A stretch of 64,000 nucleotides of DNA from Bacilli bacterium (GCA_041669265.1 JBAYBM010000003.1:14103-78102); one strand, 5' to 3'. Positions 7,486-25,902 are shown, counted from the first letter of the stretch. Made by a program: numbers and translations. Notes: generated by a model from the letters alone, not told the origin.

Positions 7486-8265
7486 TTACTTACTTACTTC
7501 CCTTGTAGTATTACTACTTTTTTTATTTTTAGGAGATTCATCATAATGTTTATAATAATGATCATATTGATAATAGTAAGAAGTATAATCACTATTCTTT
7601 CTAGTAACATTAGTAAATACTGCTCCTAAGACATTAACATGATTGTTCTTTAAATATTTAACAGCATCTATACTACTCTTACGATCACTGAATATTTGTG
7701 AAACTACAAATATACAACTATCACTAAATCTAGATACTATTAATGCATCACTTACTACGAGTATTGGTGGGCAATCAATAAAGATATAATCATATTTGTC
7801 TCTTAATACTTTCATTAAATCTTTTAATTTAGTAGAATTTAACATCTTTAATGGATATGGTACTTTACTACCACTATTAATAAAATCTATATTCTTATTT
7901 TTAGAATGTTTAATAAGAGTAGATAAAGGTAAATCATTACCTAAATAATCTGTTAATCCATCTTTATTAACTGCTTTAAAAGCATGATGTATTTCAGGTC
8001 TACGTAAATCCATATCTATTATTAATACTTTCTTATCATCTTCAGCAAAGGTAACTGCAATATTTAATAATGTTAATGTTTTACCTTCTCCTTGATTAGA
8101 AGAAGTAATTTGTATAACTTTATTAATATTATCTACACTTGAAAATTCAATACCTACTTTAATTCTTCTATAAGCTTCACTTATATGAGAAGAAGGATCA
8201 AGTAGCGTAATAACATCATGATTAGGATTAGCTTTTTCTTGTTGAATAGCTTTAGCTTTATTCAT
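7486..8265 (-). CDS. cpsD: BY-kinase, cytoplasmic tyrosine autokinase (CpsD/YwqD type) with a C-terminal Tyr cluster
   Basis: Walker A ITSSNQGEGKTLTLLNIA, Walker B VLIIDMDLRRP, C-terminal YTSYYYQYDHYY. Confidence 0.8.
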   Translation of the reverse strand: MNKAKAIQQEKANPNHDVITLLDPSSHISEAYRRIKVGIEFSSVDNINKVIQITSSNQGEGKTLTLLNIAVTFAEDDKKVLIIDMDLRRPEIHHAFKAVNKDGLTDYLGNDLPLSTLIKHSKNKNIDFINSGSKVPYPLKMLNSTKLKDLMKVLRDKYDYIFIDCPPILVVSDALIVSRFSDSCIFVVSQIFSDRKSSIDAVKYLKNNHVNVLGAVFTNVTRKNSDYTSYYYQYDHYYKHYDESPKNKKSSNTTREVSK

Positions 8266-8267
8266 AA

Positions 8268-9125
8268 TTATTTGTTCTCCTTTTTATTTTTAGTATCAAT
8301 ATCATAGAAAGGAATAACTCCAAGTACTGAAATACCTAAAGCTTTTTCTACTTCATCACTAGATTTAAATTTAGTATTAGTAGCTTCTCTAATACAGGTA
8401 TAAATAATAGCAAGTACTACTCCTATTGCTAAACCAATACCAATATTACGTAAAGTATGAGATACTTCTACTCCTACTTTAGCATCACTTAATATTGCTA
8501 TATTATCATATAGTAATTTATATTTAGGAGAATCATCTTCATTTTTTCGATTTGCAATTTCTACTGCTTTTTTAGCTACTAAATTAGCAACAAATTTAGT
8601 TTCATTTTTATCGGTCGAAGTATAAGATACACTAACTACTAGGGTAGCATCTACTAGGGATACTCCTAAATTTTTACTTAATTCTTTTTCATCTATTTCA
8701 TAATTAGAATCTTTATCTATTAAAGATAATACTTCATCTAAAACTACATCTTGTTTTATAAAAGCAACATAGGTTTTAGAAATATAAGAAGAATATTGAT
8801 AATCACTTACTGTAGAAGAATCTCCTGTACTTGTAGATGATTCAGGAGAAACAATTAATGTCGCATCAGAAGAATAAGTATTTGGTTCTACTAAATTATA
8901 AATTTCTCCTCCTACTCCACCTACTATTATAAATAATAAAATAGCTAATAAATGTTTCCTTAAAATAAAAAGAATGTCTTTAAAACTTAGACCTTCTTTT
9001 TCATTATCATCATCACTATTATTGTGGGTAGTTAAAATATCTGTATCACTAGATACAGGTTTATTTACTTCGTTTAAGTTATCCTTTTTGTTCTTTGTAT
9101 TCATATTAACCCCTTTTGTATTCAA
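8268..9125 (-). CDS. cpsC: Polysaccharide co-polymerase / chain-length regulator (CpsC/YwqC/Wzz type); two TM helices
   Basis: N-terminal TM LLAILLFIIVGGVGG, C-terminal TM IGIGLAIGVVLAIIY; partners the downstream kinase. Confidence 0.75.
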   Translation of the reverse strand: MNTKGVNMNTKNKKDNLNEVNKPVSSDTDILTTHNNSDDDNEKEGLSFKDILFILRKHLLAILLFIIVGGVGGEIYNLVEPNTYSSDATLIVSPESSTSTGDSSTVSDYQYSSYISKTYVAFIKQDVVLDEVLSLIDKDSNYEIDEKELSKNLGVSLVDATLVVSVSYTSTDKNETKFVANLVAKKAVEIANRKNEDDSPKYKLLYDNIAILSDAKVGVEVSHTLRNIGIGLAIGVVLAIIYTCIREATNTKFKSSDEVEKALGISVLGVIPFYDIDTKNKKENK

Positions 9126-9216
9126 TTAATTTTACCTTTATTAATTATATATTACAACCATAAAAATTAACTAATAAAGTTGATGTCTTAATATTTTACT
9201 TAAAATTTTAAAAAAG

Positions 9217-9990
9217 TTATTTTTTGTCTCCATAATAACGTTTCTTATAAGAATAATAGTTATAATCATGAGAATAATTACTATTTTTCTTAGTAACATT
9301 AGTAAAGACTACTCCTAAGATAGGAACATCATTATCTTTTAAATATTTCATTGCTAATATAGCATCATTCTTATTACAAAACATTTGGGATACTATAAAT
9401 AATGCTGCATCAGCATAAGTAGCAATAATTAAAGCATCACTAACTGCTAATATTGGTGGACAATCAAGTAAAATATAATCATATTGATCTCTAAATGAAT
9501 CTATTAATTTTTTAATAGATGGATCATCAAGTACTGTTAAAGGATAAGGTACTTTACTACCTCTAACAATATAATCTATATATGGAGATGAAGAATGTTT
9601 TACTAATTTAGATAATGGTATATCACCTACTAAATAATCATCTAATCCATTCTCATTTTTACTTTTAAAAGCATGATGGATTTTAGGTCTACGTAAATCC
9701 ATATCTATTATTAATACTTTCTTCTTATCTTCAATAAATGTAGCAGCTAAATTAAGTAGAGTAATAGTTTTACCATCATTTTGATTTGGTGAAGTAACCT
9801 CTATTACTTGTACTTTACGGTTTATGCTAGAAAATTTAATCCCAACCTTAATACGTCTATAACATTCACTAATACTTCCATTAGGATTTTGTAAGGTAAT
9901 AATGTTATAGTCTTTATTTTTATGCTCTCTTTTTAAAATGCTTTTTCTATTCATCGACTTTACCCCCAACATCCTCATCTTTAACATCAT
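9217..9990 (-). CDS. Second BY-kinase paralog (CpsD type); the real start is probably internal (MNRKSILK...)
   Basis: Walker A VTSPNQNDGKTITLLNLA, VLIIDMDLRRP, C-terminal YSHDYNYYSYKKRYY; clear paralog of 7486..8265. Confidence 0.75.
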   Translation of the reverse strand: MMLKMRMLGVKSMNRKSILKREHKNKDYNIITLQNPNGSISECYRRIKVGIKFSSINRKVQVIEVTSPNQNDGKTITLLNLAATFIEDKKKVLIIDMDLRRPKIHHAFKSKNENGLDDYLVGDIPLSKLVKHSSSPYIDYIVRGSKVPYPLTVLDDPSIKKLIDSFRDQYDYILLDCPPILAVSDALIIATYADAALFIVSQMFCNKNDAILAMKYLKDNDVPILGVVFTNVTKKNSNYSHDYNYYSYKKRYYGDKK

Positions 9991-10549
9991 CTATATCATA
10001 AAAGGGGATAACGCCAATAACGGAAGCACCAAGAATACTTTCAACTTCTTCTGGGGATTTAAATTTAGTATTCAATGCTTCTCTAACGCATACATATATG
10101 ATAGCAATTACAAAGCCAATTGCAAATCCAATACCTATATTTCTAACAGTATGAGATACTTTTTTACCTTCTTTAGCTTCACTTAAAACTGCTATATTAT
10201 CATATAGTAATTTATATTTAGGTTCTTTATTAGTAGTAGTAGCATTTGCTACTTCTACTACTTTATTTACCAAAATATTTACAATATATTGAGCTTCTTT
10301 AGAATCAGTACTCGTATAACCTACACTAATAACTAAAGAAGAATTAACTAAGGTTGCACTTATATGATTTCTTAAGATATCACTAGTAAGTTCTAATCCT
10401 TTAGCTTCATTAATAGTATTACTTACTTCATCTAAAACTACATCTTCACTAATAAAAGTAACATAGGTTTTAGAAATATAAGAAGAATATTGATAATCAT
10501 CTACACTAGTAGAATCACCTACTAAAGTTTCATCAGGAGACACAATCAT
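9947..10549 (-). CDS. Second CpsC/Wzz paralog, N-terminally truncated: the first TM segment is missing. The open frame continues upstream to ~10630 without any ATG/GTG/TTG
   Basis: MIVSPDETLVGDSTSVDDYQYSSYISKTYV aligns with residues ~85 onward of 8268..9125. Hand translation upstream gives ...SCKVNVKFSPKNIFLEVKNYEATATM with no start codon and a TAA at ~10628-10630. Confidence 0.5.
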   Translation of the reverse strand: MIVSPDETLVGDSTSVDDYQYSSYISKTYVTFISEDVVLDEVSNTINEAKGLELTSDILRNHISATLVNSSLVISVGYTSTDSKEAQYIVNILVNKVVEVANATTTNKEPKYKLLYDNIAVLSEAKEGKKVSHTVRNIGIGFAIGFVIAIIYVCVREALNTKFKSPEEVESILGASVIGVIPFYDIDDVKDEDVGGKVDE

Positions 10550-13326: not shown

Positions 13327-13355
13327 AAAATCTATCGATATATACGATAGATTTT
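13327..13355. terminator. Bidirectional hairpin between convergent genes (AAATCTATCG-ATATATA-CGATAGATTT) with flanking A/T runs
   Basis: Perfect 10-bp inverted repeat read directly; lies between the + gene ending at 13240 and the - gene ending at 13379. Confidence 0.5.
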
Positions 13356-13378: not shown

Positions 13379-14329
13379 TTACTTTTGATAAAGTTTTAAA
13401 GAATTTATTTCAAAATGAGAATATTTATATACATTAGAATTACCAGTGGTATCTTTTTTAAAGTAAGATGCTCCAGTTACTACTTCTCCACTAGTAGGAG
13501 TACTTTCACTATAAAAAGTACCATCTAAATTAGAGAATTCTATACTAATAAAATATATTTGTTTTATTCCTGTAGCAAAGGTAGTAGATATTAATTCAGT
13601 ATTTGTATCATCATATAATATCTCTCCTGTAGTAGATCCATCTACTACTGTACCCTTATTATCAGTAGTATTAGTTTTAGTATCAGTATCTAATTTATCA
13701 GTATAATTAATAACGCCAGTTCCTGTTCTACCACTACTAGGATAAGTAACAAAATCATTAGCTACTACAGTACTTGTAGTAGTTGTATCACTAGTGTCAT
13801 AACTAGTAACATATAAATTTATAGCATCACTTAATTCTACTCTACGAGTAGTAACAGTATCATCATTACCACTAAGAACATAATTTAAATTAGTAGTAAT
13901 ATTATCAAAATAATTAGAGAAAGAAGCTAAAGATAAAGCTACATCTATATCATTAAAAGTAGTAGTTACTTCTAAAGCAAAAGTATATCTTGCTCCTGGT
14001 ACCATATTTGATAAATCTGTATGAGTATTACTAGCACTTAAAAAATCTGTATCATAATCAGTTACTGTTTTAATATTAGTAGAATTTTCTTCATATTGCC
14101 CTGGTTCAATATAACCATGATATTCATTACTACTATTATAATTATTTTTATAATATTTTAAGTTATAGGTAATTTCATTAGAGGTAGCAATAATATTACT
14201 TACTGTAACACTAGCTTTATTAGTAGAAGTAAACCAAGCATAGGTAGAACTTATAGTAGCTAAAAAAACAAAGCCTATTTGAACTAAAGCTAATGCAATA
14301 ATTTTAGATTGTTTTTTAACGCTCTTCAT
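13379..14329 (-). CDS. Secreted T/S/N/D-rich protein with a TasA/camelysin-like (SipW-cognate class) signal peptide
   Basis: N-terminus KIIALALVQIGFVFLATISSTYAWFTSTNKASV resembles the TasA-type leader (hydrophobic core then T-Y-A-x-F-T-D/S); good SD AGGAGGAT upstream. Confidence 0.5.
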   Translation of the reverse strand: MKSVKKQSKIIALALVQIGFVFLATISSTYAWFTSTNKASVTVSNIIATSNEITYNLKYYKNNYNSSNEYHGYIEPGQYEENSTNIKTVTDYDTDFLSASNTHTDLSNMVPGARYTFALEVTTTFNDIDVALSLASFSNYFDNITTNLNYVLSGNDDTVTTRRVELSDAINLYVTSYDTSDTTTTSTVVANDFVTYPSSGRTGTGVINYTDKLDTDTKTNTTDNKGTVVDGSTTGEILYDDTNTELISTTFATGIKQIYFISIEFSNLDGTFYSESTPTSGEVVTGASYFKKDTTGNSNVYKYSHFEINSLKLYQK

Positions 14330-14640
14330 ATAGATCCTCCTATAAAATAAAAATACCAGCAGCTAAAATTTCTTTTAGGCAACTGGCAACCAATACATAT
14401 TTATATAGGCCCTATAGCTTTGCGTCACTAAGTTTCCCTAGTTTTGCTTGTAGTTATTATATTACGAAAGTATTTCGCAAACAAGTAAAATTTTATGTAA
14501 TCGATTTCGTGAATTGTGTTGTATACATCGTATCTTTTAAAGATTATTTTTATATAGAAAATTCAAACTAAATTATGTAGTTTTTATCAATGAAATTTCT
14601 ATTTTTAATACTAAAAAGTAATATAAAACCACACCAAATA

Positions 14641-14675
14641 TTTTCGAAAAGTGTTAGTTTTTACATTTTTCGAAA
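14641..14675 (-). terminator. Possible weak terminator after the LRR lipoprotein gene: TTCGAAAA-N16-TTTTCGAA stem-loop followed by an A/U-rich run
   Basis: Inverted TTTTCGAAAA-type motifs at 14641-14650 and 14668-14677. Confidence 0.25.
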
Positions 14676-14707
14676 GTTTTAAAGACTATTTTATATATTT
14701 TTATTAA

Positions 14708-17700
14708 TTATATTGTCCAGAAAGCAGGTAAATTATTAGTGTCATAATACCAATATCTTCTACTTTCAAGTAAGGTATCACTTGGTTTAGTAGCTGAATA
14801 ATATGCTGTTGCTTTAGCCCCGCTATTCCAAGAAGTAGTCCAAGCATGGGTACCACCTTCTTTATGCATATTATAAAATGTATCATAACTTTCAGAGACA
14901 TATATATAAGCATTAGAAGCGGCAAATGAATTAGCGTTTACTGTTAAATTAGTAGTGTCACTAGGAAGAATAAATCCTGTTAAAGAAGTACATCCACTAA
15001 ATGCACTATCACCTATATAAAGGATGCTACCTGTTTTATCAGTATTTGTAGCAAAATTAACTATAGTAGCATTATCTACTACGCTACCAGTATTCTCATC
15101 ATTAGCATATCTAGTTTTCATATTAGTAATACCACTACAACCACTAAATATAGAATTACCTAAATATTTAATAGTAGATGGTAAAGTTATAGTAGCTAAA
15201 TTAACACATGGATTGAATGCCCATCCATACATACTTTCTAGTCCATAATTTAAATCTAAGGAAGTTAAAGCAGTATCTCCTTTAAGCATATCCATACCTG
15301 TTATGTCACAAGTAGAAATAGTTTTTAAAGTAGTTAAAGTACGAGGTACACACATTAAGACTTGTCCATTACCTCCAGCTGTAACGTTTCTAGCAGCATT
15401 AATATAGAAACAACTATTATAAGAAGATAAATAAGTACCTACTACTTCATCAGTATTAGATATAGTACCTAAAGAATACCCATTACAACCACTAACATTA
15501 TAAAAGACATTTAAACGAGCATTTGGTGAGTTATCTGGAGTAGTAGTTGCTTTATATCCACTTGGGAAATATATATCTACTGTAGTAGGTAATACTACAT
15601 ATGTTAACTTAGTTCCCATACATCCATTTTGCCCTATATAACCTAAAGAAGTAGGAAATACATAATTATTATTATAAGTAGTACCACTATACCCTACTAC
15701 TTGAGCTAAATTATTACATGCATATAGTCCAGCATAACCGATAGTTACTATAGTATTTGGTAACTCTAATTTATTCATATAAGAATTACCTGCAAAAGCA
15801 CCTTGACCAATTTCAGTAACATTGAAGGTTCCTTCATCTACTGTTTCAGTAGCATTAACTTTTAATGTTTTATTTGAATAGGTAGTACTTTTAATATATC
15901 CAGTAATAGTAATATGAGCGGTAGTAGGTTCATGAGTAGTTCCAGAGACATGTCCTCCTGTATCATAACTATCTACCGTACCGCTATCATAAATATAATA
16001 ATATCCTTGATCAGTATTAGAGTGGATATTAGTTTCTGCACCAATGCCAAAATATATACCATTAACATCAGCGTTAAATCCTGCATTATTATAACCAGTA
16101 CCATTACCTTCAGCACTAGTAGATAATTTATAATTTGTGGCACTATAATTAGTTTTAGTACCTTCTAAATAGATTGATAATTTACTACCGATAGCAATAT
16201 TAGAATTTACCTTTTTAATTCTTAAAGGAATATATAAATATGGAAGTTTGGTACAATAAGAAAATACATTATTATATAATTCATTAATCCAATTACCCCA
16301 ATTTATAGTAGTTAAATTAGAACAACTACTAAAACAACTATCACCAATATTAGTTAATGAACTTGTAGGTGATAAAGCATCTGGAGCAGTAACAAAAGTT
16401 AAAGTTGTAATAAACTTACAATTATTAAAAGCTTGATTACCAATATGAGTAGTATAAGTAGAACTAGATGTATCTAATAATGAATAAGGTATTTTAAGTT
16501 CAAATCCATCAGCATTAGTGGCTCCATTACCATCATTAATCTTAAAAGCACCTTCAGCTATTGTAGTTAAACTACATGTTCCATCTTCAGCTCCAGCAAA
16601 ATATAATTCTTTTAAAGCATATAAGTTATTAAAAGCCCATTTACTTATTGTAGTAACGCTAGAAGGTATCGTTAAAGTAGTTACTTTTTTATTATTATAG
16701 AAAGCAGTTTCTCCAATAGTAAGTAAACCTTCATTTAAGGTTATAGCAGTCATATTTGTACAACCACTAAAAGCATCTTTTTCAATAAATGTTAAATCAG
16801 TATTAGTAGTAATAGAAGTTATATTAGTATTATTATAGAATGCTTTTTCATATATACCTTGTACTACATATCCTCCTAAAGTATTAGGAATAGTAACTGC
16901 TCCACCATTTCCATTATACCCATAGATATATGAATAAGTAGTATCTCCATCATTTTTAGACATATATAAACAACTATTTTCAATACCAATATCAACGTAT
17001 CCATAATCAATTTGAATATAAATATTAGAATCAGTAGCACTACCTGTAGAATTACCTATTCTATTCCAATCAGTAGTATATGTATCAGGCACTGCATCAT
17101 CTTGCATATATATAGTAGCGGATTTAATACCTCTAAAAGCCCATTTTTCAACAGTAGTTACACTACTTGGAAGATGGATAAGGTTTACACTAGTACAATT
17201 AAAGAAAGCATTTTCTCTTATTATTTTAGTAGTAATAGGCATTAATAATCTATTTAGATATTTACAATAAGCAAAAGCACTTGCTCCTACTTCAATTAAA
17301 CCAGTAGGAAGAGCAAAAAAGTTTTTAGCATCTGCAGCATATATTAAAGTAGTACATCCACTAAAAGCATGATCCCAAATTTTAGTATATGTAGCATCAG
17401 TTTCGTAATATAAATATGTTAAATTAGAGCAATTCTCAAATGTTCCAGGAAATATTTGATTCTTATCATTAGTATAATCACTGTCAGAATCTACTACTAA
17501 TTTTGGTAATATAAAAGTTACCATTTTATTATTATTAGCGAATGCTTGTTTACCTATAGTAGTTAAATAATCAGGCCAGTCTGAAATATTAGTTATATCT
17601 GCACCATTAAAACCATTATTAGCAATCGAAGTAATTGTATAAGTTGTACCATTACTAACATAATAATTAGGTAAGTCTATATATCCATTAGTAGCATTAT

Positions 17701-17983
17701 CTAAAGATGTACCTTTAGCGACCGCACAAGTTCCATCGCTAGCAGTTATATATTCTAAGCCTTCAGTATAAGTATCACCTGTATAGTCATTATTATATCT
17801 AGATACTCCATATTTAGTGAATTTACGATTAGGATCACCATCTTTAGATACTTTATCAAGTTCTTCCATAGTTTCATCGGTATCAGTATTTATATTATTG
17901 TTACAAGAACTTGTTAAAGATACTATACCTAATATAGTTAATATACATAAGAATCTTTTTAAGTTAATATTAAATAATTTCAT
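14708..17983 (-). CDS. Large surface lipoprotein with BspA-type leucine-rich repeats (LRR_5-like)
   Basis: Lipobox-like ILGIVSLTSSC. Many repeats of the IP..V..I...AF..C..L form, e.g. TIPNTLGGYVVQGIYEKAFYNNTNITSITTN...IEKDAFSGCTNMTAITLNEGLLTIGETAFYNNKKVTTLTIPSSVTTISKWAF; 1091 aa. Confidence 0.7.
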   Translation of the reverse strand: MKLFNINLKRFLCILTILGIVSLTSSCNNNINTDTDETMEELDKVSKDGDPNRKFTKYGVSRYNNDYTGDTYTEGLEYITASDGTCAVAKGTSLDNATNGYIDLPNYYVSNGTTYTITSIANNGFNGADITNISDWPDYLTTIGKQAFANNNKMVTFILPKLVVDSDSDYTNDKNQIFPGTFENCSNLTYLYYETDATYTKIWDHAFSGCTTLIYAADAKNFFALPTGLIEVGASAFAYCKYLNRLLMPITTKIIRENAFFNCTSVNLIHLPSSVTTVEKWAFRGIKSATIYMQDDAVPDTYTTDWNRIGNSTGSATDSNIYIQIDYGYVDIGIENSCLYMSKNDGDTTYSYIYGYNGNGGAVTIPNTLGGYVVQGIYEKAFYNNTNITSITTNTDLTFIEKDAFSGCTNMTAITLNEGLLTIGETAFYNNKKVTTLTIPSSVTTISKWAFNNLYALKELYFAGAEDGTCSLTTIAEGAFKINDGNGATNADGFELKIPYSLLDTSSSTYTTHIGNQAFNNCKFITTLTFVTAPDALSPTSSLTNIGDSCFSSCSNLTTINWGNWINELYNNVFSYCTKLPYLYIPLRIKKVNSNIAIGSKLSIYLEGTKTNYSATNYKLSTSAEGNGTGYNNAGFNADVNGIYFGIGAETNIHSNTDQGYYYIYDSGTVDSYDTGGHVSGTTHEPTTAHITITGYIKSTTYSNKTLKVNATETVDEGTFNVTEIGQGAFAGNSYMNKLELPNTIVTIGYAGLYACNNLAQVVGYSGTTYNNNYVFPTSLGYIGQNGCMGTKLTYVVLPTTVDIYFPSGYKATTTPDNSPNARLNVFYNVSGCNGYSLGTISNTDEVVGTYLSSYNSCFYINAARNVTAGGNGQVLMCVPRTLTTLKTISTCDITGMDMLKGDTALTSLDLNYGLESMYGWAFNPCVNLATITLPSTIKYLGNSIFSGCSGITNMKTRYANDENTGSVVDNATIVNFATNTDKTGSILYIGDSAFSGCTSLTGFILPSDTTNLTVNANSFAASNAYIYVSESYDTFYNMHKEGGTHAWTTSWNSGAKATAYYSATKPSDTLLESRRYWYYDTNNLPAFWTI

Positions 17984-18000
17984 AGATGTTATCCTTTCTT

Positions 18001-19377
18001 TTAAGCTTTAGTATAGAAATAGAATTGTTTCTTTTCTATAAGAGTATTATTAAAATAATAATCATAAGTAGCATTAGTATAATTCTTATTTAATATAACA
18101 GCTTTAGTCAAATTAGTATCTTGTTCAATATATAATTTATGAGTATCAGAATCAGTATATATTTCATAAGTAGTAACACTATTATTAAAATATAATTCAG
18201 TATATATAAATGCTCGATATGTATCACCTACTACTTTTTTAGTTTTACCATCTTTAGGATCAGTATAAGTAGAAGTATAAATATCTAAAGTAGAAGGATT
18301 ATATAATAAGAAATCTATATAATCTACTACATCATAAGGAGTATAAACAATTTCAGTTTCTCCAGCATTACCTTCTGTTTGTCCTTGGGCTGCAACATAA
18401 TAAATATATATTGATCCATTAGGTGAACTTATTAAATAATCTCCTTTTGGTAAAGAGAAGGTATGAGCAAATAATCTTGGAGTACTACTAGAATCTACTA
18501 TGGTAGCTCGTGTATCAGTCGTACCATCAAGATTATAGTTAAAATATTTAAAATCATTATTTGAAGGGATATATGTAGTATATAAAGGATAATCTACTGC
18601 ATTAGTAAGTTTAGAGTCACCTATAGTTTGAGTTTTATCATATACTGATAAATATTGCCCACTTCCAGAGACATTACTAGCCATAACTGTAACATTAGCT
18701 CCTGTATCATTAGAGATTTTAAAAGATATAGCACTTGTAGCATAAGTTACATCATTACTTGTCAAAGTAGAGAAAGTAGAACTACTTTTTTGAATAGTTA
18801 AATAAGAATTTAAAGAAGTAATATTAGTTTCTATTCCTGTAGCACTGACATCTTTTACCATGACTCCAAATTCTTTACTACCAGGATCTATTTTATCTCC
18901 TCTTTTATCATGTAATTTATAGGTAAAATATTCTTTTAATAAATCTGAATCAGTATTATAGAAATAATATCCATTCATTGAAGAAGAAAAAGGACAACGA
19001 ATTATATAATTACTTCTTCTTTCATATCTTTGATTCCAAGTAGATGAATCGACATATGTAGGCATATCTACCATATTATTTAATCGATAAGAATTTCCAC
19101 CATATTCACCCCAATTACTATAATTTGGAGTATTAGAAGTAGTATTATCAGGTACATATTCTCCCGTTGTATAATAAAATTCACTAAAGGCATTAGTAGT
19201 ATCTTGGGTTACTGAATAACTACCAAATCCATCAAGAAAGTGTTCATCATAAGGAGTAACATTATTATCTTTTTCACCTGTCGTAAGAGTAAATATACCT
19301 AATCCTCGATCAGTATCATCAGTATCTGCAATAACTTTTAATCCACTAAAATCTATCTTATTAGTAGATGGAGTAAT
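18001..19377 (-). pseudogene. C-terminal ~458 codons of a TasA-signal protein, in the same frame as 19378..20925 and separated from it only by one TAA (19378-19380). Nothing could initiate translation in the first 101 codons after that TAA (no Met until 19072-19074, no SD)
   Basis: Hand translation of the minus strand 19377 to 19075 gives ITPSTNKIDFSGLKVIADTDDTDRGLGIFTLTTGEKDNNVTPYDEHFLDGFGSYSVTQDTTNAFSEFYYTTGEYVPDNTTSNTPNYSNWGEYGGNSYRLNN then MVDMPTYV... with no stop. Confidence 0.5.
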
Positions 19378-20925
19378 TTATCTAATAGTTCCATCACTGT
19401 TACGATGATCTTCTCTTAAGAATTCCATAAAGACATTACCTGTTACTGGAGTATAAGCATAAACATTAACTCCATTAGGACCATCTTCAATTTGAGCAAT
19501 AGTATTATCACCAAGAATAGTATTATAAATATTAGTAAAATTAACTACACCAGTATCACCTGAATTATCAAACATTTCAGATGGGTTAAATCCATTATTA
19601 ATATTAACTCCTATTTCTCCTATTAATCCTGTTTCAGATTCACTATTAATATAACTATATGTAGTAGAATCACTACTATTTAAATATATTCCACCCTTAT
19701 TCTGTTCATTATATACATATGAATTTAATACTGTTCCATCAGTATGGCCTACTAAATACCCTACATTATTCTTATGTGAATAATTAGTATATTTCTCATC
19801 TTCATCACTACTTAAATAATCTAAATATACTTTCATAGTTATAGTAGGAGTATCATTACTAATATTATTAAAGAATTTAACTAAATATGTAGATAATACT
19901 TTAGCATACGATATTGAATTAATAGATTTAGATGCAATTAAAGATATTCTAAAATCTAATTCTCCTTTATCGGTAGTAATAAAAGTATTGTTATTATCTG
20001 TATTATCTATTAAAGCATTGTAATCTATATCAATTGTATTATTAGTTTTATCTACTAATAAAATATTACTCGAAGTACTCTTAATATAAAATTTAGTAGA
20101 AGTATCAAAAGAAGTAGGGAAGGTAGCAGTAAAAGTTCCATCACTAATTTCCGTAGCATTAAAAGTATATGTCGAAGTACTCGTTAAATCATTATATAAG
20201 GTAGTATTATTAAATTTTAATATAGCATCATTTGCATAAATAGAATCAGTAACATCTTTACTTCCATCCGTTAATTCAGGATATAATTCTGCTAATGAAC
20301 TAGTATTATATCCATCGTTATATACTTTTAAATTAGAAAATAAACAATTCTCTACTTTAGCTCCTGAATCTACATAACCAAATACTCCTACATCTTCTGG
20401 AGAAGAATGGATTGTTAAACCTTTAATATTAATATTACTTCCATCATAGGTACCATAAAATGGAGTAGCTTCGTTACCAATAGATAATAATGTTTTAGAA
20501 TAATCACTCATATCTAGAGTAGTAGTATAAGAATTAGCAAGTACTCCATCATCAACTGTAGAATCACTTTTAAATACATATAAATTAGTATCAGTAGAAT
20601 CATTTTTAGTATTTAAAGGATATCCGATTTGGAAATGAGCTTTGCTGGAATCACTAAATAATCCTAAATTTTGTAATCTAGTAAGATTATAAAAATGAAT
20701 TGGTCTAGTAATAATATAAGGTTTAGTAGATGTACCATCACCAATATATCCATCACAATTATAGAAATATTCTCTTAATCCTATATCTCCACCTAAATCT
20801 AAATTCTCTTCTTTTGTTATTGAAGTATAGTAAGCATAAGTAACACTAGTTAATAAAGTAGTTAACGTTATTACAGGGAATAATCCTTTTAATAATATAT
20901 GTCTTAAAGTTAATATCTTCTTCAT
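19378..20925 (-). CDS. Secreted T/S/N/Y-rich protein with a TasA/camelysin-like signal peptide; probably the N-terminal 515 aa of a ~970-aa protein interrupted by an in-frame TAA
   Basis: N-terminus LRHILLKGLFPVITLTTLLTSVTYAYYTSITKEENLDLG; ends ...MEFLREDHRNSDGTIR then TAA. Confidence 0.55.
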   Translation of the reverse strand: MKKILTLRHILLKGLFPVITLTTLLTSVTYAYYTSITKEENLDLGGDIGLREYFYNCDGYIGDGTSTKPYIITRPIHFYNLTRLQNLGLFSDSSKAHFQIGYPLNTKNDSTDTNLYVFKSDSTVDDGVLANSYTTTLDMSDYSKTLLSIGNEATPFYGTYDGSNINIKGLTIHSSPEDVGVFGYVDSGAKVENCLFSNLKVYNDGYNTSSLAELYPELTDGSKDVTDSIYANDAILKFNNTTLYNDLTSTSTYTFNATEISDGTFTATFPTSFDTSTKFYIKSTSSNILLVDKTNNTIDIDYNALIDNTDNNNTFITTDKGELDFRISLIASKSINSISYAKVLSTYLVKFFNNISNDTPTITMKVYLDYLSSDEDEKYTNYSHKNNVGYLVGHTDGTVLNSYVYNEQNKGGIYLNSSDSTTYSYINSESETGLIGEIGVNINNGFNPSEMFDNSGDTGVVNFTNIYNTILGDNTIAQIEDGPNGVNVYAYTPVTGNVFMEFLREDHRNSDGTIR

Positions 20926-20926
20926 A

Positions 20927-21826
20927 TTAATTAACCTGTTCTGCTTCTATTATAAAAGCATAATCCATATATAATTTTAAAGGAGTAAATAAATCATCAT
21001 CTATATAAGAAGCTAAAGTAGTTTCGTTATATTCAATATTAAAATATATTTCAAAACTAGTAGTTTTATTCTTATTAAAGGAAGATATCTTCTCAGTTGG
21101 TGAATATATTATTACTTTATCAACTGGATCGGTATCAGTATAAAAATGAGTTTTAGTAGTACCCGATTTTTCCATACTTTTTAACTTTATAGAAAGTAGT
21201 TTCTTTAGTAGTATCATAAGTTGTATCTAAAGTTATATTTGCTAAATCAGTAGAAGTAATACTACAAAAATCTAAATAATTTGCAATACCAGCAGTATAT
21301 CCAGTAGGAATAGTAGAGGTTTTTCTATAGGTAGCAATATCAAAAGTATAATCACAATCTGCGGTAATAGAAAAAGACATTTTTAAGACTAAATTAGTCA
21401 TTAAATCAGTTAAATTAACAGAATCATTAATATATAAATATACTGGATCATATCTATTCATTTTTAAGGTATATCCATCTGTAGCATTTAAAGAATATTC
21501 ATTAACACTTCCACTATTATAATCATAATATAATCCACTATCATCTAAAGCGACAAAATCATATTTATATCCAGTAGTAGTTAAAGTATTTATTTTAATA
21601 TTCCCACTATCAGCATTAACTGTTTCATCTATTGTTTTTTAGATATAAACGAGGCATAAGTAGTAACTCCAAGGGAGACACTAACAAAACAAACATTCAA
21701 AAGAAGTATTAAGCCATTCCTTAATATTTTGTTTTTAAAAATCTCGCTAAGTACCTCTTTTAAATTCACAATACTCCTTAAAAAATAATTGTTTTTCTTT
21801 TTCTCCCAAAATAAAAAAACAATCAA
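20927..21826 (-). pseudogene. Third TasA-signal protein gene, broken into three ORF fragments (21629..21826, 21153..21461, 20927..21217) by two compensating frameshifts
   Basis: Fragment 1 LLLNVCFVSVSLGVTTYASFISKKQ* ends at an A6 run (T6 at 21635-21640 on the plus strand); one extra A would read ...SFISKKTIDETVNADSGNIKINTLTTTGYKYDF... into the 21153..21461 frame. Fragments 1 and 3 share a frame. The second shift lies in 21153-21227, which holds two A5 runs. Confidence 0.5.
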
Positions 21827-21944
21827 CGAAATAATTATAAATTATTTTTTGTGCTGTGTATATAAATTATGTCTTTTATAGACATAAAAAATAAACAAAT
21901 ATCTATGATATGTTTAAAAATTAACTTAATTATTTAGTAAATAC

Positions 21945-22298
21945 TTAAATATCTTTTTCTATTTTAATGATATTTAAGGCTGCAGTACAAGCTGGACAAT
22001 CGCAATACTTATTTCCTTTAGCAAGTAATTCATTAGCATGTTTTTTAAATTTATTGGCTTCTTCTTCTCCAAACATAGTTAAACATTCTTTAGAATTAGC
22101 AAATTTTAAAAGATCTTCTATAGGTTCAACATCTTCTTTTAATTCCTTTATAAGTTCTTTAGCAATTTCATCTTCTTCTTTACTACCTTCATGAATAAGC
22201 CATCTTTTACAAACATCTTTAGCTTCATTACATGCAAAACTTACTTTTAATAATTCTTTACATTCTTTTTCTATATATTTTCTTGTTTCTACTTTCAT
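21945..22298 (-). CDS. Small Cys-containing hypothetical protein (117 aa), unknown function
   Basis: Cys pattern C..C (CNEAKDVC), KECLTMFG, YCDCPAC; no recognisable domain from sequence alone. Confidence 0.35.
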   Translation of the reverse strand: MKVETRKYIEKECKELLKVSFACNEAKDVCKRWLIHEGSKEEDEIAKELIKELKEDVEPIEDLLKFANSKECLTMFGEEEANKFKKHANELLAKGNKYCDCPACTAALNIIKIEKDI

Positions 22299-22341
22299 AA
22301 ATAACTCCTAGTAATATTATTATAACTTTCTAAATGATAAT

Positions 22342-22377
22342 AAAAAAGAAAAGAGGAATTTAAGGGCCCTCTTTTCC
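22342..22377 (-). terminator. Rho-independent terminator for the 22466..23455 gene (minus-strand RNA GAAAAGAGG-GCCCUUAAAUU-CCUCUUUUC then UUUUUU)
   Basis: 9-bp stem, 11-nt loop and T6 tract read directly. Confidence 0.6.
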
Positions 22378-22465
22378 TAGTAATAATATCAATGCCGGAG
22401 AGGCATATGGATTATCTTTTTTTATACTACATTATTGTATATAAATGCTACAAAAATAAATTTAC

Positions 22466-23455
22466 TTAATAATTTAGTTCGATACCATCGAAACTTTCAT
22501 TTCCTGTTTCGCTATATCCTACTAAACATTTCTTTTTAAAGAACTCTAAAACATCAACATCTTTACTTTCATCATCAAAATATTTTCCTAATAATTCTTT
22601 ATATTCTTGCATATCTATTGTTTTAACTAAAATTAAACATTTACAATTTTTTAATAAATAACTATTAGCAGCTATCAAAGCTGCTACATCGTTATTTTTA
22701 GAAAATATCTTACTACGGGCAAAATATAATATTAAATCTACTGCTCTTTCAAAAGGTGGTTTATTCTCTCTATATATTAAATTAACTATACCTTCAGTAT
22801 TAGGAGCGTATGGTTTAGGTGGAACATAATGAGAATTTGGTAAAATACCGATATTTTCTTCTCTTTCTTTATCAGAATTAGTATCTATTCCTTCTCCTAA
22901 TAGAGTTGTTAAATAAGAAACAAATACATAATCTGGTTTAGTATATGTAATATCTACATCAAATATAAAATCATATGCTAAAAAGGTATTAAATACTCTT
23001 CTTTTTTCAAGAGGCACTTTTATAGTCTTATCTCTTGGAGTATAAATAATATCTTCAATCTCTTTAATAGAATAATCTAAACCCATATAACATAAAGAAC
23101 TTTGAACAAATTCAAAAATAAGATTTAAAGAATATTCAACATTTCTAAATATATTATTATTATAAGGTTTTTCCTGAACACCATAATCTTTCAGTTCCAT
23201 ATTAATCATATCTAAATCTTTAGAAAGAGCTTCATATAGTTCACTTTGATCAACTACTTCTTTATATAATTCTTTAGTGTAAGGACCAGCTAAAGTTAGA
23301 TACTTCTTCTTATCTACTACATTCTGTAAATAGATATTCTTTATCTTTTTTTCTCTTTTAATAACAGGCTTGCCAAAATATTTAATTCTTGAAATATAAT
23401 CTAAAACAAAACTTTTATCTCTTAAACAACGAAATATTGGTTCTAGTGTGTCCAC
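22466..23455 (-). CDS. Hypothetical cytoplasmic protein (329 aa), no confident domain call
   Basis: Long ORF, no signal peptide; does not match any family I can name from the sequence. Confidence 0.4.
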   Translation of the reverse strand: MDTLEPIFRCLRDKSFVLDYISRIKYFGKPVIKREKKIKNIYLQNVVDKKKYLTLAGPYTKELYKEVVDQSELYEALSKDLDMINMELKDYGVQEKPYNNNIFRNVEYSLNLIFEFVQSSLCYMGLDYSIKEIEDIIYTPRDKTIKVPLEKRRVFNTFLAYDFIFDVDITYTKPDYVFVSYLTTLLGEGIDTNSDKEREENIGILPNSHYVPPKPYAPNTEGIVNLIYRENKPPFERAVDLILYFARSKIFSKNNDVAALIAANSYLLKNCKCLILVKTIDMQEYKELLGKYFDDESKDVDVLEFFKKKCLVGYSETGNESFDGIELNY

Positions 23456-23559
23456 GGGTAGTTCTCCTAAAAATATGTAAGTCAGTATATATAATTAAGC
23501 CATAAAAAAATTATTAAAGATACTACTTTTTAAAATATTTTACGAAATTATTTCTTAAA

Positions 23560-25902
23560 TTATGAAATTTGAGCGAAAGTTTTAGTATTAGAATCGAAAA
23601 CAGAAATGAATTTATAGGAATTACCACCTATATCTCCACCACATAAATAAACACTCGTACCTACAGAAGCACAAGCTATACTATATCTTGGGCTAATTGT
23701 TAAATCAACTAAAGTAAGTCTATCATTTTGTGTATTAAAATCATATATTGTATCAACTACACCAGACCCATCATAACCACCAAAAATATAAATATGAGTC
23801 CCTACGACGGCATTACTATGATTATATAAACTTAAAGTAGGAGTAGTTAAAACTTCTTCAGTAACTACATCACTCACAAATGAATATACTTTGATTTCAT
23901 TTATAATGCTACTTGCTCCATGACCACCAAAAACATAGAATTTACCATTAACAGCAGAACTTGACATTTGCTCTCCTGCTGTAGACATGACTGTATCATT
24001 AGTAACTTTTTCAATAGAAAAATCCTCGTTAACTTTAAAACGTTGTATTGTATTTAATTTTACAGAGCCATCATAACCACCAAATAATAATATATCAGTA
24101 CCATAAATAGATGCAGTAGCATTATATGCAGCAACATTCATAGTAACTCCTGTATCACTTAATGTCTTAGTTTCAGTATTAAAGTCATATATTGTATTAA
24201 GACAAACAGAATCAGAATTACCGCCAAATATATAAATATGGGTTTTATAAGCAACACTAGAAGGCTTATACATTGGAACAGGAAGAGTTGCATCTAATTT
24301 AGTGAGAGTCCCTGTAATTGAGTTTATATCATATATTGTATCTAATTTATGTCCAAGACTATCTTTTTTTCCACCAAATACATAAACATGGTTTCCAACA
24401 GATTCACAAGCAGCCTTAGAAACTTTAGTTTCAAAGTCATCAACAATAGGTAAGACAGTAAAATTAGCTTGAACTATAAATCCATTTTCAATCATTGTTG
24501 TATTATATTCAAAATATTCATCTTCATTATAAGTAACTTTATCATCTCCAGTTACTCCATCATATTTTTCTACATTATTAATTAATACATTCTTTAAACT
24601 ATATCCAGCATCTGGATAAAATTTAAAAGATATAGCGTCACCTACAAGGGCACTTCCTAAACTAGGAACTACATAACCATGTTCACTTGGAAGAATAGTA
24701 GAAGCATAGGCAGTTTTTCCATCTTCTCCATCTGTTCCATCGGCTCCAGGATTACCTTGAGGTCCTTGAGGACCAATAGGTCCTGTAAAACCAGTACCCC
24801 CTTTAAAGTTACCTTTATTTACCCAAGTATCACTTTCTTTTACATAATAATCCCATGTAGAAGTATTAATATAAGAATCTCCATTTTTACCTAATGTATC
24901 TGAAGGTATTGTAGTACCAGTTAAAACGCTAGATCCATCACTACCTTTAATATTACCTTTAGCAGTACCCCAAGTTCCACTTGCTTTTACATAATAATCC
25001 CAAGTTGAAGTATTTATATAAGAATCTCCATCTTTACCTAATGTATCTGAAGGTATTGTAGTACCTGTTAAAACACTAGCTCCATCAGCTCCTTTTAGAT
25101 TAATAACTTTACTTCCCCAACCACTAGAAGTTTTAATATAAAAATCCCAGTTAGAAGTATCAATATAAGAATCACCTATATTACCTAAAGTTGAAGCAGG
25201 TATTCCACTTCCAGTTCTTAAAGAGAAACCATCAGCACCTTTAATTTTTCCTAAGCTGTCTCCCCAACCAGAACTTGTTTTAATATAGAAATCCCAAGTT
25301 GAAGTATCAACATATGAATCACCTATATTTCCTAACGTAGAAGCAGGTATTCCACTTCCAGTTAAGAAAGATTTTCCATCTTCTCCAGCAGCTCCAACAG
25401 CACCTACGGCTCCTGTGGCTCCTGTTGATCCATCACTTCCTGAACTTCCTTTAAAACTACCTTTATTAACCCATGTTCCATTTTCTTTAACATAATATAC
25501 CCATTTTGTTAAATCAATATAGGAATCATTATCATTTCCTAAAGATGTATCTGGAGTGCCTTTACCTGTAAGAATAGAAGTTCCATTCTTACCAGCTTCA
25601 CCAACACTACTATCACCTTTAATATTACCAACCTTAGTCCATACATCATCACCTTTAATATAAAAGTCCCAAGTAGAAATATTAATATAAGAATCTCCAT
25701 TACTACCTAAACTTGTAAGTGGTACATCAGTACCTGTTAAAACTGAATAGCCGTTTAAACCATTAATGCCATCAGTTCCATCTACCCCATCAGTTCCATC
25801 AACACATTGATTTTCTGTGTTTCCACAAGAAATTAAACTAGTAGGAAGTACTAAGAGAATACTTAATAAACTTGCTGCTTTAAAAAAATTATGTTTTTTC
25901 AT
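23560..25902 (-). CDS. Mosaic surface lipoprotein: collagen-like Gly-X-Y runs, eight tandem ~60-aa modules, a Listeria-Bacteroides-type repeat and a C-terminal Kelch beta-propeller
   Basis: Lipobox LPTSLISCG. GXY runs DGTDGVDGTDGINGLNG, GSSGSDGSTGATGAVGAVGAAGEDGKS, GPIGPQGPQGNPGADGTDGEDGKT. Eight modules of the LTG.G.P...LG..GDSY..TSTWD.Y.K form. Kelch-like VYVFGG, IYIFGG, ILLFGGYDGS, FYVFGGHGAS, IYIFGGYDGSG, VYLCGG. Confidence 0.7.
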   Translation of the reverse strand: MKKHNFFKAASLLSILLVLPTSLISCGNTENQCVDGTDGVDGTDGINGLNGYSVLTGTDVPLTSLGSNGDSYINISTWDFYIKGDDVWTKVGNIKGDSSVGEAGKNGTSILTGKGTPDTSLGNDNDSYIDLTKWVYYVKENGTWVNKGSFKGSSGSDGSTGATGAVGAVGAAGEDGKSFLTGSGIPASTLGNIGDSYVDTSTWDFYIKTSSGWGDSLGKIKGADGFSLRTGSGIPASTLGNIGDSYIDTSNWDFYIKTSSGWGSKVINLKGADGASVLTGTTIPSDTLGKDGDSYINTSTWDYYVKASGTWGTAKGNIKGSDGSSVLTGTTIPSDTLGKNGDSYINTSTWDYYVKESDTWVNKGNFKGGTGFTGPIGPQGPQGNPGADGTDGEDGKTAYASTILPSEHGYVVPSLGSALVGDAISFKFYPDAGYSLKNVLINNVEKYDGVTGDDKVTYNEDEYFEYNTTMIENGFIVQANFTVLPIVDDFETKVSKAACESVGNHVYVFGGKKDSLGHKLDTIYDINSITGTLTKLDATLPVPMYKPSSVAYKTHIYIFGGNSDSVCLNTIYDFNTETKTLSDTGVTMNVAAYNATASIYGTDILLFGGYDGSVKLNTIQRFKVNEDFSIEKVTNDTVMSTAGEQMSSSAVNGKFYVFGGHGASSIINEIKVYSFVSDVVTEEVLTTPTLSLYNHSNAVVGTHIYIFGGYDGSGVVDTIYDFNTQNDRLTLVDLTISPRYSIACASVGTSVYLCGGDIGGNSYKFISVFDSNTKTFAQIS
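24810..25750. repeat. Intragenic tandem DNA repeats (~180 bp x ~8) encoding the 60-aa modules of the lipoprotein
   Basis: Recurring blocks such as ccaagttgaagtat.aa.atatgaatc / tctgaaggtattgtagtacc visible on the plus strand; boundaries approximate. Confidence 0.55.

Follow-up and report, generated by a model that had tools for sequence, protein, structure and literature searches.

We examined a stretch of DNA from a Bacilli bacterium (JBAYBM010000003.1:14103-78102, 64,000 nucleotides; hereafter the window), in which the open reading frames (ORFs) between 21.8 and 13.3 kb are all co-oriented on the minus strand. They comprise three genes for proteins with a common type of N-terminal leader, of which only one, gene A, is intact, and one intact gene for a leucine-rich repeat (LRR) lipoprotein. 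On balance we lean towards the view that the genes of this region encode the structural components of a fibre or adhesin system of the cell surface, controlled by cyclic di-GMP (c-di-GMP), in a low-GC, uncultured gut bacterium of the Bacilli; the G+C content of the window is about 25%. The features of the region are as follows.

13327..13355, minus strand: terminator-like hairpin and T-run, with an 11-pair stem and a T-rich tail 3' of gene A (consensus match only)
13379..14329, minus strand: gene A, 316 amino acids (aa), intact; Sec-type leader ending SSTYA|WFTS, then a predicted beta-sandwich
14225..14245, minus strand: leader-motif codons of gene A (TYAWFTS; motif scan)
14344..14388, minus strand: putative expression platform, a hairpin and U-tract (minimum-free-energy fold of the unliganded leader)
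14375..14458, minus strand: c-di-GMP-I riboswitch aptamer RF01051 (Rfam cmscan)
14456..14484, minus strand: possible promoter of the riboswitch-gene A unit, TTGTTT-17 nt-TATAAT (read by eye)
14708..17983, minus strand: BspA-type LRR lipoprotein, 1091 aa, intact, lipobox LTSS-C (PF13306)
18001..20925, minus strand: gene D/C, 974 codons, leader ...LLTSVTYA|YYTS, interrupted by a TAA (in-frame read-through and contig L004)
20821..20841, minus strand: leader-motif codons of gene D/C (TYAYYTS; motif scan)
20927..21769, minus strand: gene E pseudogene, about 281 codons, leader ...SLGVTTYA|SFIS (frameshifts and L007 ortholog)
21641..21661, minus strand: leader-motif codons of gene E (TYASFIS; motif scan)
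21834..21862, minus strand: promoter-like site 5' of gene E, TATACA-17 nt-TATAAT (consensus match only)

A common leader motif in three genes

The original prediction, made from the sequence of the window, had pointed to leaders ending in STYAWFTS (13379..14329), VTYAYYTS (19378..20925) and TTYASFIS (a fragment at 21629..21826), and all three are present as described: ...ATISSTYAWFTS in gene A (14329..13379), ...LLTSVTYAYYTS in D, the 5' part of gene D/C (20925..19378), and ...SLGVTTYASFIS in the gene E fragment (21826..21629). A scan of the 64 kb in six frames for TYA.[FY].S gives exactly three matches, and every one of them lies where the hydrophobic N-terminal leader of one of these genes ends; the number expected by chance is 0.017 (residue shuffles of the window ORFs); the leader observation is thus real and far above chance. 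Leaders of this class are composed of a basic N-terminus, about 20 hydrophobic residues, T-Y-A and an aromatic pair. Apart from the leader proteins, only two proteins nearby carry a signal, both of them lipoproteins whose lipoboxes are ordinary. The number of secreted proteins with such leaders, originally put at four, has to be lowered to three, since the ORF at 18001..19074 is leaderless and continues the one at 19378..20925.

Outside the window, the more general pattern [STGA]-x-[ASC]-W-[FIYV] was found in 68 of 77 representatives of the gene A family, and in 21/24 A-like, 18/18 A2-like (A2 being a further leader protein of related loci, with the motif GSTFAWFTT) and 4/4 E-like proteins; a looser T-x-A-x-[YF] is present in 9/12 D-like proteins. 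The three leaders of the window, STYA|WF, VTYA|YY and TTYA|SF, fit a tripartite Sec pattern with T-x-A followed by x-F, comparable to GTWA|AFND of Bacillus subtilis TasA. The leader of gene A would be cut after Ala31, judging from the -3/-1 rule and from the parallel with TasA, in which the fibre chain begins at residue 28.

Co-encoded proteins with a common N-terminal motif also recall pilins, either type IV pilin-like or sortase-dependent. The leaders, however, have no G|F-x-x-x-E prepilin site, and basic residues precede their hydrophobic region as in Sec leaders; gene A ends in ...FEINSLKLYQK and has no C-terminal LPXTG; and no PilB/PilC/PilD or sortase annotation was found at the inspected loci. 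With neither matching motifs nor matching genes, both kinds of pili were rejected as scarcely credible.

A c-di-GMP-I riboswitch precedes gene A

The sole Rfam match in the 64 kb is a c-di-GMP-I aptamer (RF01051) at 14375..14458, the most informative feature of the region, which was missed in the original prediction; what that prediction had observed is otherwise largely right. The aptamer covers model positions 1-87 of 87 with 61.7 bits (E 1.2e-9; gathering score 35), and its end is separated by 46 nt from the ATG of gene A downstream. In the unliganded fold, a hairpin forms with arms at 14388..14378 and 14363..14354, and a U-tract at 14354..14344 comes after it, the sequence after the hairpin being AUUUUUAUUUU. 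The 5' arm of this putative terminator is the 3' strand of the aptamer, the two having the strand GCCAGUUGCC in common, and the same overlapping layout recurs in most related loci. Ligand binding should therefore prevent termination, and the element would act as an ON switch by ligand-dependent antitermination.

A perfect TATAAT lies at 14461..14456, with a TTGTTT box below the -35 criterion of the promoter scan. With this hexamer on the 5' side and the terminator-like hairpin at 13355..13327, the probable end of the transcript, on the 3' side, gene A looks like a c-di-GMP-controlled transcription unit of its own.

The region was compared with contig L004, which comes from another sample and is 99.97% identical to the window over 20.9 kb. 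Three of the seven differences in all fall in the riboswitch leader, namely an indel at 14398 (P2 loop), C/T at 14378 and G/A at 14360; the last of these, G14360A, converts a G-U pair of the terminator stem into A-U and keeps the pairing. No GGDEF or EAL motif was detected in the window.

The gene A family and its predicted fold

In GenBank, gene A is recorded as 'MAG: hypothetical protein WCR97_02015 [Bacilli bacterium]' (MAG, metagenome-assembled genome). A word-indexed homolog search with gene A returned 2 proteins only, and an exhaustive profile search was needed to reveal its relatives, which form at least 84 clusters at 50% identity and are mostly 270-320 aa long. In the alignment of the family, Trp32 is invariant and Ala31 nearly invariant, as is Phe33 in a 25-sequence subset. 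The leader signature T-x-A-W-F is followed by a conserved amphipathic strand, and a second signature, FTIEFSN...TYY...GNSNVY, is located at the C-terminus. Neither gene A nor D/C nor E has a match in Pfam, gene A alone of the three matches an NCBIfam model, and a search of the gene A family profile against PDB sequences gave 0 matches at E<=10.

The AlphaFold model of gene A, built from a 77-sequence alignment, has a mean predicted local distance difference test score (pLDDT) of 88.3 and a predicted template modelling score of 0.83. In this model, a leader helix spanning residues 4-36 is followed by a predicted beta-sandwich of about 12 strands, and the pLDDT falls to 67-74 over residues 31-50, right after the putative cut.

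The single continuous helix of residues 4-36, which runs through the motif, raises the alternative that the leader is an uncleaved signal-anchor, with the helix holding the proteins in the membrane and the invariant Trp-Phe placed at the membrane-water interface. The invariance of the Trp would fit such an arrangement, as would the fact that a cleaved protein with no wall-sorting signal needs some other means of retention at the cell. On the other hand, a helix is what AlphaFold commonly draws for cleavable signal peptides, four protein families have conserved small residues at -3 and -1 (T/S-x-A), and these families are linked to a dedicated signal peptidase in related genomes, as described below. 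We therefore regard signal-anchors as quite improbable and a cleaved leader as the better reading.

Related loci combine the leader class, the riboswitch and a Sec11/SipW-type peptidase

Species-representative genomes were searched with a degenerate DNA pattern for FTIEFSN...TYY, which yielded 15 loci, 13 of them true; L008 and L011, both in Bacteroidota, are chance matches of the DNA pattern and were discarded. The 13 true loci belong to MAGs of uncultured 'Bacilli', 'Bacillales', 'Erysipelotrichaceae' and 'Staphylococcaceae' from the rumen, yak omasum, human gut and similar sources. In these loci, and in contigs reached through individual proteins, A-like, E-like and D/C-like genes occur in recurrent combinations, to which an LRR_5 gene may be added, namely in L006, L007, L009, L014, L015, L018, L019, L020, L021, L022, L025, L029 and L030. 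A c-di-GMP-I aptamer precedes an A-like or E-like gene in 12 other loci; the aptamer-bearing loci are L006, L007, L009, L012, L013, L014, L015, L018, L022 (twice), L025 (twice) and L027.

In L010, L024, L029 and L030, further genes come after the structural genes and on their strand; they encode A2, a small membrane protein, X383 (which has about 383 aa, no annotation and a membrane segment at its N-terminus), an AAA ATPase, a DUF2357 protein, a signal peptidase and an EAL protein. In 11 loci, the operon that encodes X383, the membrane-bound AAA protein, the DUF2357 protein, the SipW-like peptidase and the EAL protein is itself headed by a c-di-GMP-I aptamer.

The peptidase of these loci has about 260 aa and obtains its best scores on archaeal and SipW models. 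With TIGR02228 (cutoff 51.85 bits) it scores 52.2 bits in L010, 45.5 in L029 and 55.2 in L030; with the SipW model NF046067 the E-values range from 3e-19 to 4e-13, and the 190-bit equivalog cutoff is not reached, which makes the peptidase of the related loci a distinct subfamily. Its motifs SMEP, HRV and GDN align with the catalytic motifs of human SEC11A/C, and the Ser, His and Asp residues are invariant across 17 homologs, that is, the enzyme is of the Ser-His-Asp and not of the Ser-Lys type. Homologous clusters that bear the peptidase are L010, L024, L029, L030, L036-L038, L047-L049, L053, L054 and L056. A metagenome scan with the peptidase gave 27 loci, 25 of them clear members, and in 23 of these 25 the membrane-bound AAA and DUF2357 genes lie directly upstream of the peptidase; an EAL gene lies downstream wherever the contig reaches far enough. 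Leader proteins of the A2-, A- or D-like kind are encoded in 9 of the 11 peptidase loci that reach at least 5.6 kb upstream. The leader class, the SipW-type peptidase and the riboswitch thus constitute one genomic system, conserved across genomes of 33-50% G+C.

Several further observations concern these loci. The riboswitch-headed operon from X383 to EAL occupies positions 5455-12368 of L029, and is also seen in L010, L030, L024, L033-L054 and L056. In L027 (9846-9922) the A-like gene is located behind the variant c-di-GMP-I-GGC (RF03167, 65.6 bits) and not behind the standard aptamer, and in L022 (3747-3818) and L025 (11234-11305) a tRNA gene separates the A-like gene from the riboswitch of the E-like gene. 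The AAA protein is membrane-anchored and McrB-like, matching the PADLOC candidate PDC-M26A (E 1.9e-38), and its DUF2357 partner is McrC-like; the pair looks like a restriction or defence module, yet it is encoded inside a surface-protein operon. Large membrane EAL proteins repeatedly adjoin A-like genes (L024, L027, L029, L030, L016, L020, L009), even where no SipW-like gene is in view, which fits a c-di-GMP regulon.

Disrupted genes and the LRR lipoprotein

The 515-aa ORF at 19378..20925 and the 357-aa ORF at 18001..19074 are in the same frame; one TAA at 19380..19378 splits them, and no other stop codon intervenes. In L004 the same codon is TAT (Tyr), and a 974-aa gene is called there; hence D/C is one gene that carries a strain-specific nonsense mutation. 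Reassignment or read-through of the TAA was ruled out, as the sister contig simply reads TAT. Homologs of D/C with 760-1018 aa are present in L009, L014, L015, L018, L019, L020, L022, L025, L029 and L030. The N-terminal segment of D-like proteins, GxGTxxDPYxI...YFQLGxD, matches PDB entry 3n6z, a 'putative IgA1 protease' (E 3e-4); from this match and from GLUG-type proteins we presume, as a lead only, that D may form a beta-helix. The AlphaFold model of the D fragment (4-sequence alignment) has a pLDDT of 32.8 and was not used.

Gene E was rightly marked as disrupted in the original prediction, which had placed it at 20927..21826; its extent has to be corrected, for the gene begins with a GTG at 21769, preceded by an AAGGAG ribosome-binding site. 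Two frameshifts interrupt it, one of -1 in a run of six A (21640..21635) and one of +1 in a run of five A (21171..21167), and in a tblastn search with the intact 283-aa ortholog of L007 it aligned in frames 3, 2 and 3 successively. Both shifts recur in the second assembly, L004, and gene E is therefore a genuine pseudogene. Programmed frameshifting was considered and rejected, given that the shifts go in opposite directions at short A-runs and that the ortholog is intact. E-like proteins have the leader and the first ~130 residues in common with the A family, and the gene A profile finds the E-like protein P0066 of L006 with E 1.4e-6.

The 1091-aa protein was correctly recognized from the start as a BspA-type LRR lipoprotein: it has the lipobox LTSS-C and matches PF13306 (LRR_5) in 7 stretches with 255.2 bits and E 1.1e-76 (gathering score 27.7 bits). 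Its match to the HupY/LrrG-like model NF047961 (E 3.8e-19) lies far under the equivalog cutoff. LRR_5 proteins are encoded at the equivalent operon position in L001, L006, L017, L021 and L025. In L007, a related organism from the same sample as L004, a D-like gene of 285 aa (1177-2034) joins the N-terminus of D, comprising its leader and its first domain, to the last ~60 residues of the LRR lipoprotein; this fusion indicates a deletion across most of D/C and the LRR gene, and suggests that such operons decay or vary quickly.

With E dead and D/C truncated, at most gene A and the LRR protein are made in this strain. The whole cluster could then be a decaying, functionless remnant here, the LRR lipoprotein and gene A perhaps excepted. 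The two frameshifts of gene E in two independent assemblies, the nonsense codon of D/C, the lack of a riboswitch ahead of E and the absence from the window of all the genes for A2, the small membrane protein, X383, the membrane-bound AAA protein, DUF2357, the SipW-like peptidase and EAL speak for it. Gene A, the riboswitch, the terminator hairpin and the LRR gene are nevertheless intact, the substitution G14360A keeps the pairing of the terminator stem, and D/C is intact in the sister population. We hold such a remnant to be unlikely, and proceed with the reading of the region as structural genes of a c-di-GMP-controlled surface system.

A model for the surface-fibre system

According to the model that we propose, a high level of c-di-GMP would let transcription read through the terminator into gene A. 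The precursor of A would be exported by the Sec pathway and cut after Ala31 by a Sec11/SipW-type signal peptidase or, failing that, by the housekeeping one; for the source genome we infer an enzyme encoded elsewhere in the genome, or else a housekeeping peptidase that substitutes for it. The W-F dipeptide exposed by the cut, together with the amphipathic beta-strand, might then drive assembly of the subunits on the surface, in the manner of the TasA donor strand. Gene A would encode the small beta-sandwich subunit and gene E, dead here, a distantly related second small subunit, while the LRR lipoprotein and the large D/C protein may serve as anchor and adhesin. In the full clusters, the EAL protein could exert negative feedback on c-di-GMP.

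A wider proposal, which we put forward tentatively and consider possible rather than probable, is that the window holds the structural half of an undescribed riboswitch-controlled surface-filament system of gut, rumen and digester Bacilli, whose full order would be E, D, A, A2, small membrane protein, X383, membrane-bound McrB-like AAA ATPase, DUF2357, dedicated Sec11/SipW-type peptidase and EAL phosphodiesterase. Such a system would represent a new class of machine for fibre assembly, dependent on a leader peptidase, possibly assisted by an NTPase and equipped with built-in c-di-GMP feedback, and the fold of its subunits has no significant PDB match.

The leader class does resemble the SipW-cognate class, weakly by sequence and more strongly by gene context. 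TIGR04088, the SipW-cognate signal model, is the only NCBIfam match of gene A and the family most often matched among the 77 relatives of A (7/77 at E<=1, best E 0.016). A hidden Markov model (HMM) built from 117 non-redundant leaders gives 28 bits for gene A, 15 bits for the E fragment and 1.4 bits for D, and the best sequence outside the family is B. subtilis TasA, with a weak 5.6 bits (E 0.082). PF12389 (Peptidase_M73) has no match among the window proteins and weak matches in 3/77 relatives of A (best E 0.0099).

A number of results weigh against the fibre reading. The T-x-A of the leaders is also an ordinary signal peptidase I site. The match of gene A to TIGR04088 stays at 14 bits (E 0.044), under the curated cutoff of 19 bits, and D, C and E give no match to this model at E<=10. 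Alignment of the A family with TasA by hhalign gave a probability of 0.35% (the TasA query sequence was verified against 8AUR and 5OF1). A Foldseek search of the gene A model against the PDB found nothing at E<=1e-3: the best E-value is 2.5e-3, all template modelling scores are <=0.30, the archaeal protein AbpA (7ueg) appears at rank 24 with a non-significant E of 0.052, and TasA is not among the top 50 matches. No S26/SipW gene is present in the 64-kb window, in which [DSGNT]SM.P occurs in no frame and a phmmer query with the SipW-like protein found none among the ORFs; about 4 kb past the right window end there is likewise no S26 gene and only more LRR_5 genes; and an S26 gene is equally lacking within 10 kb of the operon in L025, the closest locus with the same layout (A, E, D/C and LRR) whose contig is long (1.18 Mb). 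Of the three leader genes, two are disrupted, and the E-D/C-LRR operon has no riboswitch: no aptamer was found upstream of E or D/C (Rfam E<=1, 17900..23700), where the relatives have one, so the system may be non-functional in this strain. Fibre formation itself is predicted by analogy.

Taken together with the PF12389 and PDB profile searches, the hhalign and Foldseek results leave membership of gene A in the TasA/camelysin family unsupported, each of them being negative or weak. The jelly roll of the TasA/camelysin type that the original prediction had envisaged for the mature domains was thus not demonstrable for gene A; the structure prediction that it had suggested did give a beta-sandwich for this protein, with no detectable likeness to the TasA fold. 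The TasA/SipW-type leaders survive as a distinct conserved class with a likeness to TIGR04088 that is weak and, for D and E, absent. The absence of sipW from the window was confirmed, and the interpretation as a surface fibre or adhesin operon is partly supported: the same families cluster with a Sec11/SipW-type peptidase in relatives, and the mature domain is not TasA-like.

The missing S26 gene in the window, in its right flank and within 10 kb of the L025 operon, as well as the sub-threshold TIGR04088 score, would also be expected if the leaders were ordinary Sec signals processed by the housekeeping peptidase, T-x-A-W-F being a good -3/-1 site joined to an important mature N-terminus, and the source genome had no SipW-type enzyme. 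There is a precedent in archaeal AbpA, a TasA homolog that is processed by a generic peptidase with no dedicated gene nearby (PMC9245690). Yet at least 13 related loci cluster these families with a Sec11/SipW-type peptidase, co-oriented and under common riboswitch control, and this linkage to a dedicated peptidase is hard to explain if any peptidase sufficed. We judge processing by the housekeeping enzyme to be somewhat unlikely, and prefer cleavage of the leaders by a dedicated Sec11/SipW-type peptidase. A phmmer search of all cluster proteins of L029 against the window ORFs found gene A only, and a homolog search with the L010 peptidase gave 36 clusters, none of them with the prefix WCR97 of the source genome, which, as the search was of the shared-word type, is not evidence of absence.

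Neighbouring genes

Upstream of the cluster, at 23560-25902 on the minus strand, a 780-aa lipoprotein with the lipobox LISC is encoded, which has collagen-like G-x-x runs, a Kelch-like C-terminal part and no Pfam match on record. It contains about 6 tandem copies of a ~55-aa unit (LTG(T/S)G.P...LG..GDSYI(D/N)TSTWD(F/Y)Y(I/V)K). The part of the window from 26 to 41.5 kb is a ribosomal-protein-like block. At about 7486-10549, on the minus strand, a gene pair for a Wzz-like chain-length determinant and a ParA/MipZ-type tyrosine kinase is present in tandem duplicate, the copies having a DNA identity of ~72%; the duplication sits in a capsule or polysaccharide locus (CpsB/CapC, Bac_transf, GHMP kinase, NTP_transferase). 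On contig L031 (12036-14344), ~2-4 kb past the right end of the window, two further LRR_5 genes are found, and the genome therefore has several BspA-type LRR surface proteins.

Comparison with known systems

Two of the principles involved are already known: the pairing of a dedicated signal peptidase of the endoplasmic reticulum type with matrix or fibre proteins that bear a cognate leader, and the placement of c-di-GMP riboswitches in front of adhesin genes. The components found here appear undescribed, as does the way in which they are combined. There is no annotation for the families A, A2, E, D and X383, and a full-text literature search found no paper linking c-di-GMP riboswitches to SipW or TasA-type systems, no c-di-GMP riboswitch heading a signal-peptidase operon, and no paper linking SipW to Mollicutes-like lineages. 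If the proposed reading is true, the SipW/TasA principle extends to families in which no homology to TasA is detectable, in gut Bacilli that are poorly known and have reduced genomes, and is tied directly to c-di-GMP by riboswitches that precede the peptidase operon as well as the structural genes. It would also provide a concrete regulon (riboswitch, leader class and peptidase) for surface structures of not-yet-cultured organisms and a working hypothesis for several hundred unannotated proteins. For the annotation of the window, it means that two 'genes' are fragments of one gene and another is a pseudogene.

In Firmicutes, c-di-GMP riboswitches control surface proteins, for example pili and adhesins of Clostridioides difficile. 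As in those genes, the riboswitch of gene A is located directly upstream and acts, as predicted, through a terminator-based expression platform; the families here, in contrast, are unannotated, and the riboswitch also heads a signal-peptidase operon.

Within the operon tapA-sipW-tasA of B. subtilis, TasA assembles via an N-terminal donor strand, the N-terminus of TapA is similar, and the operon is under SinR control (PMC9674648). The system described here is similar in having several co-encoded leaders with T-aromatic-A|x-F (GTWA|AFND in TasA, STYA|WFTS here), a Sec11/SipW-type Ser-His peptidase in the related clusters, and a small subunit predicted to be a beta-sandwich, the conserved mature N-terminus of which could be a donor strand. 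It differs in that the mature domains have no detectable similarity of sequence or fold, TIGR04088 scores below its cutoff and the window has no sipW; control is by a c-di-GMP riboswitch instead of SinR; and the full clusters add a membrane AAA ATPase, a DUF2357 protein and an EAL protein.

The sipW-bsaA-bsaB-bsaC locus of Clostridium perfringens encodes small fibre subunits and a large adhesion-domain protein, and secretion of BsaA needs SipW (PMC7395162, PMC11580942). The combination of small subunits with a large adhesion-type protein, all with signal peptides and in a SipW context, is common to both systems, whereas BsaA and BsaB have remote TasA homology and isopeptide bonds, and the large protein is of the VWA type in C. 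perfringens and here a different, 974-aa protein accompanied by an LRR lipoprotein. The archaeal bundling pili AbpA/AbpB of Pyrobaculum offer a parallel, being donor-strand fibres like those of TasA for which no gene for a dedicated peptidase lies close by; the Foldseek match to AbpA falls short of significance, the organisms are different, as are the contents of the operons, and there is no riboswitch in that case. Finally, the 1091-aa lipoprotein is a clear member of the BspA-type LRR proteins (PF13306), and is distinguished from them by its gene lying within an operon of leader-class proteins.

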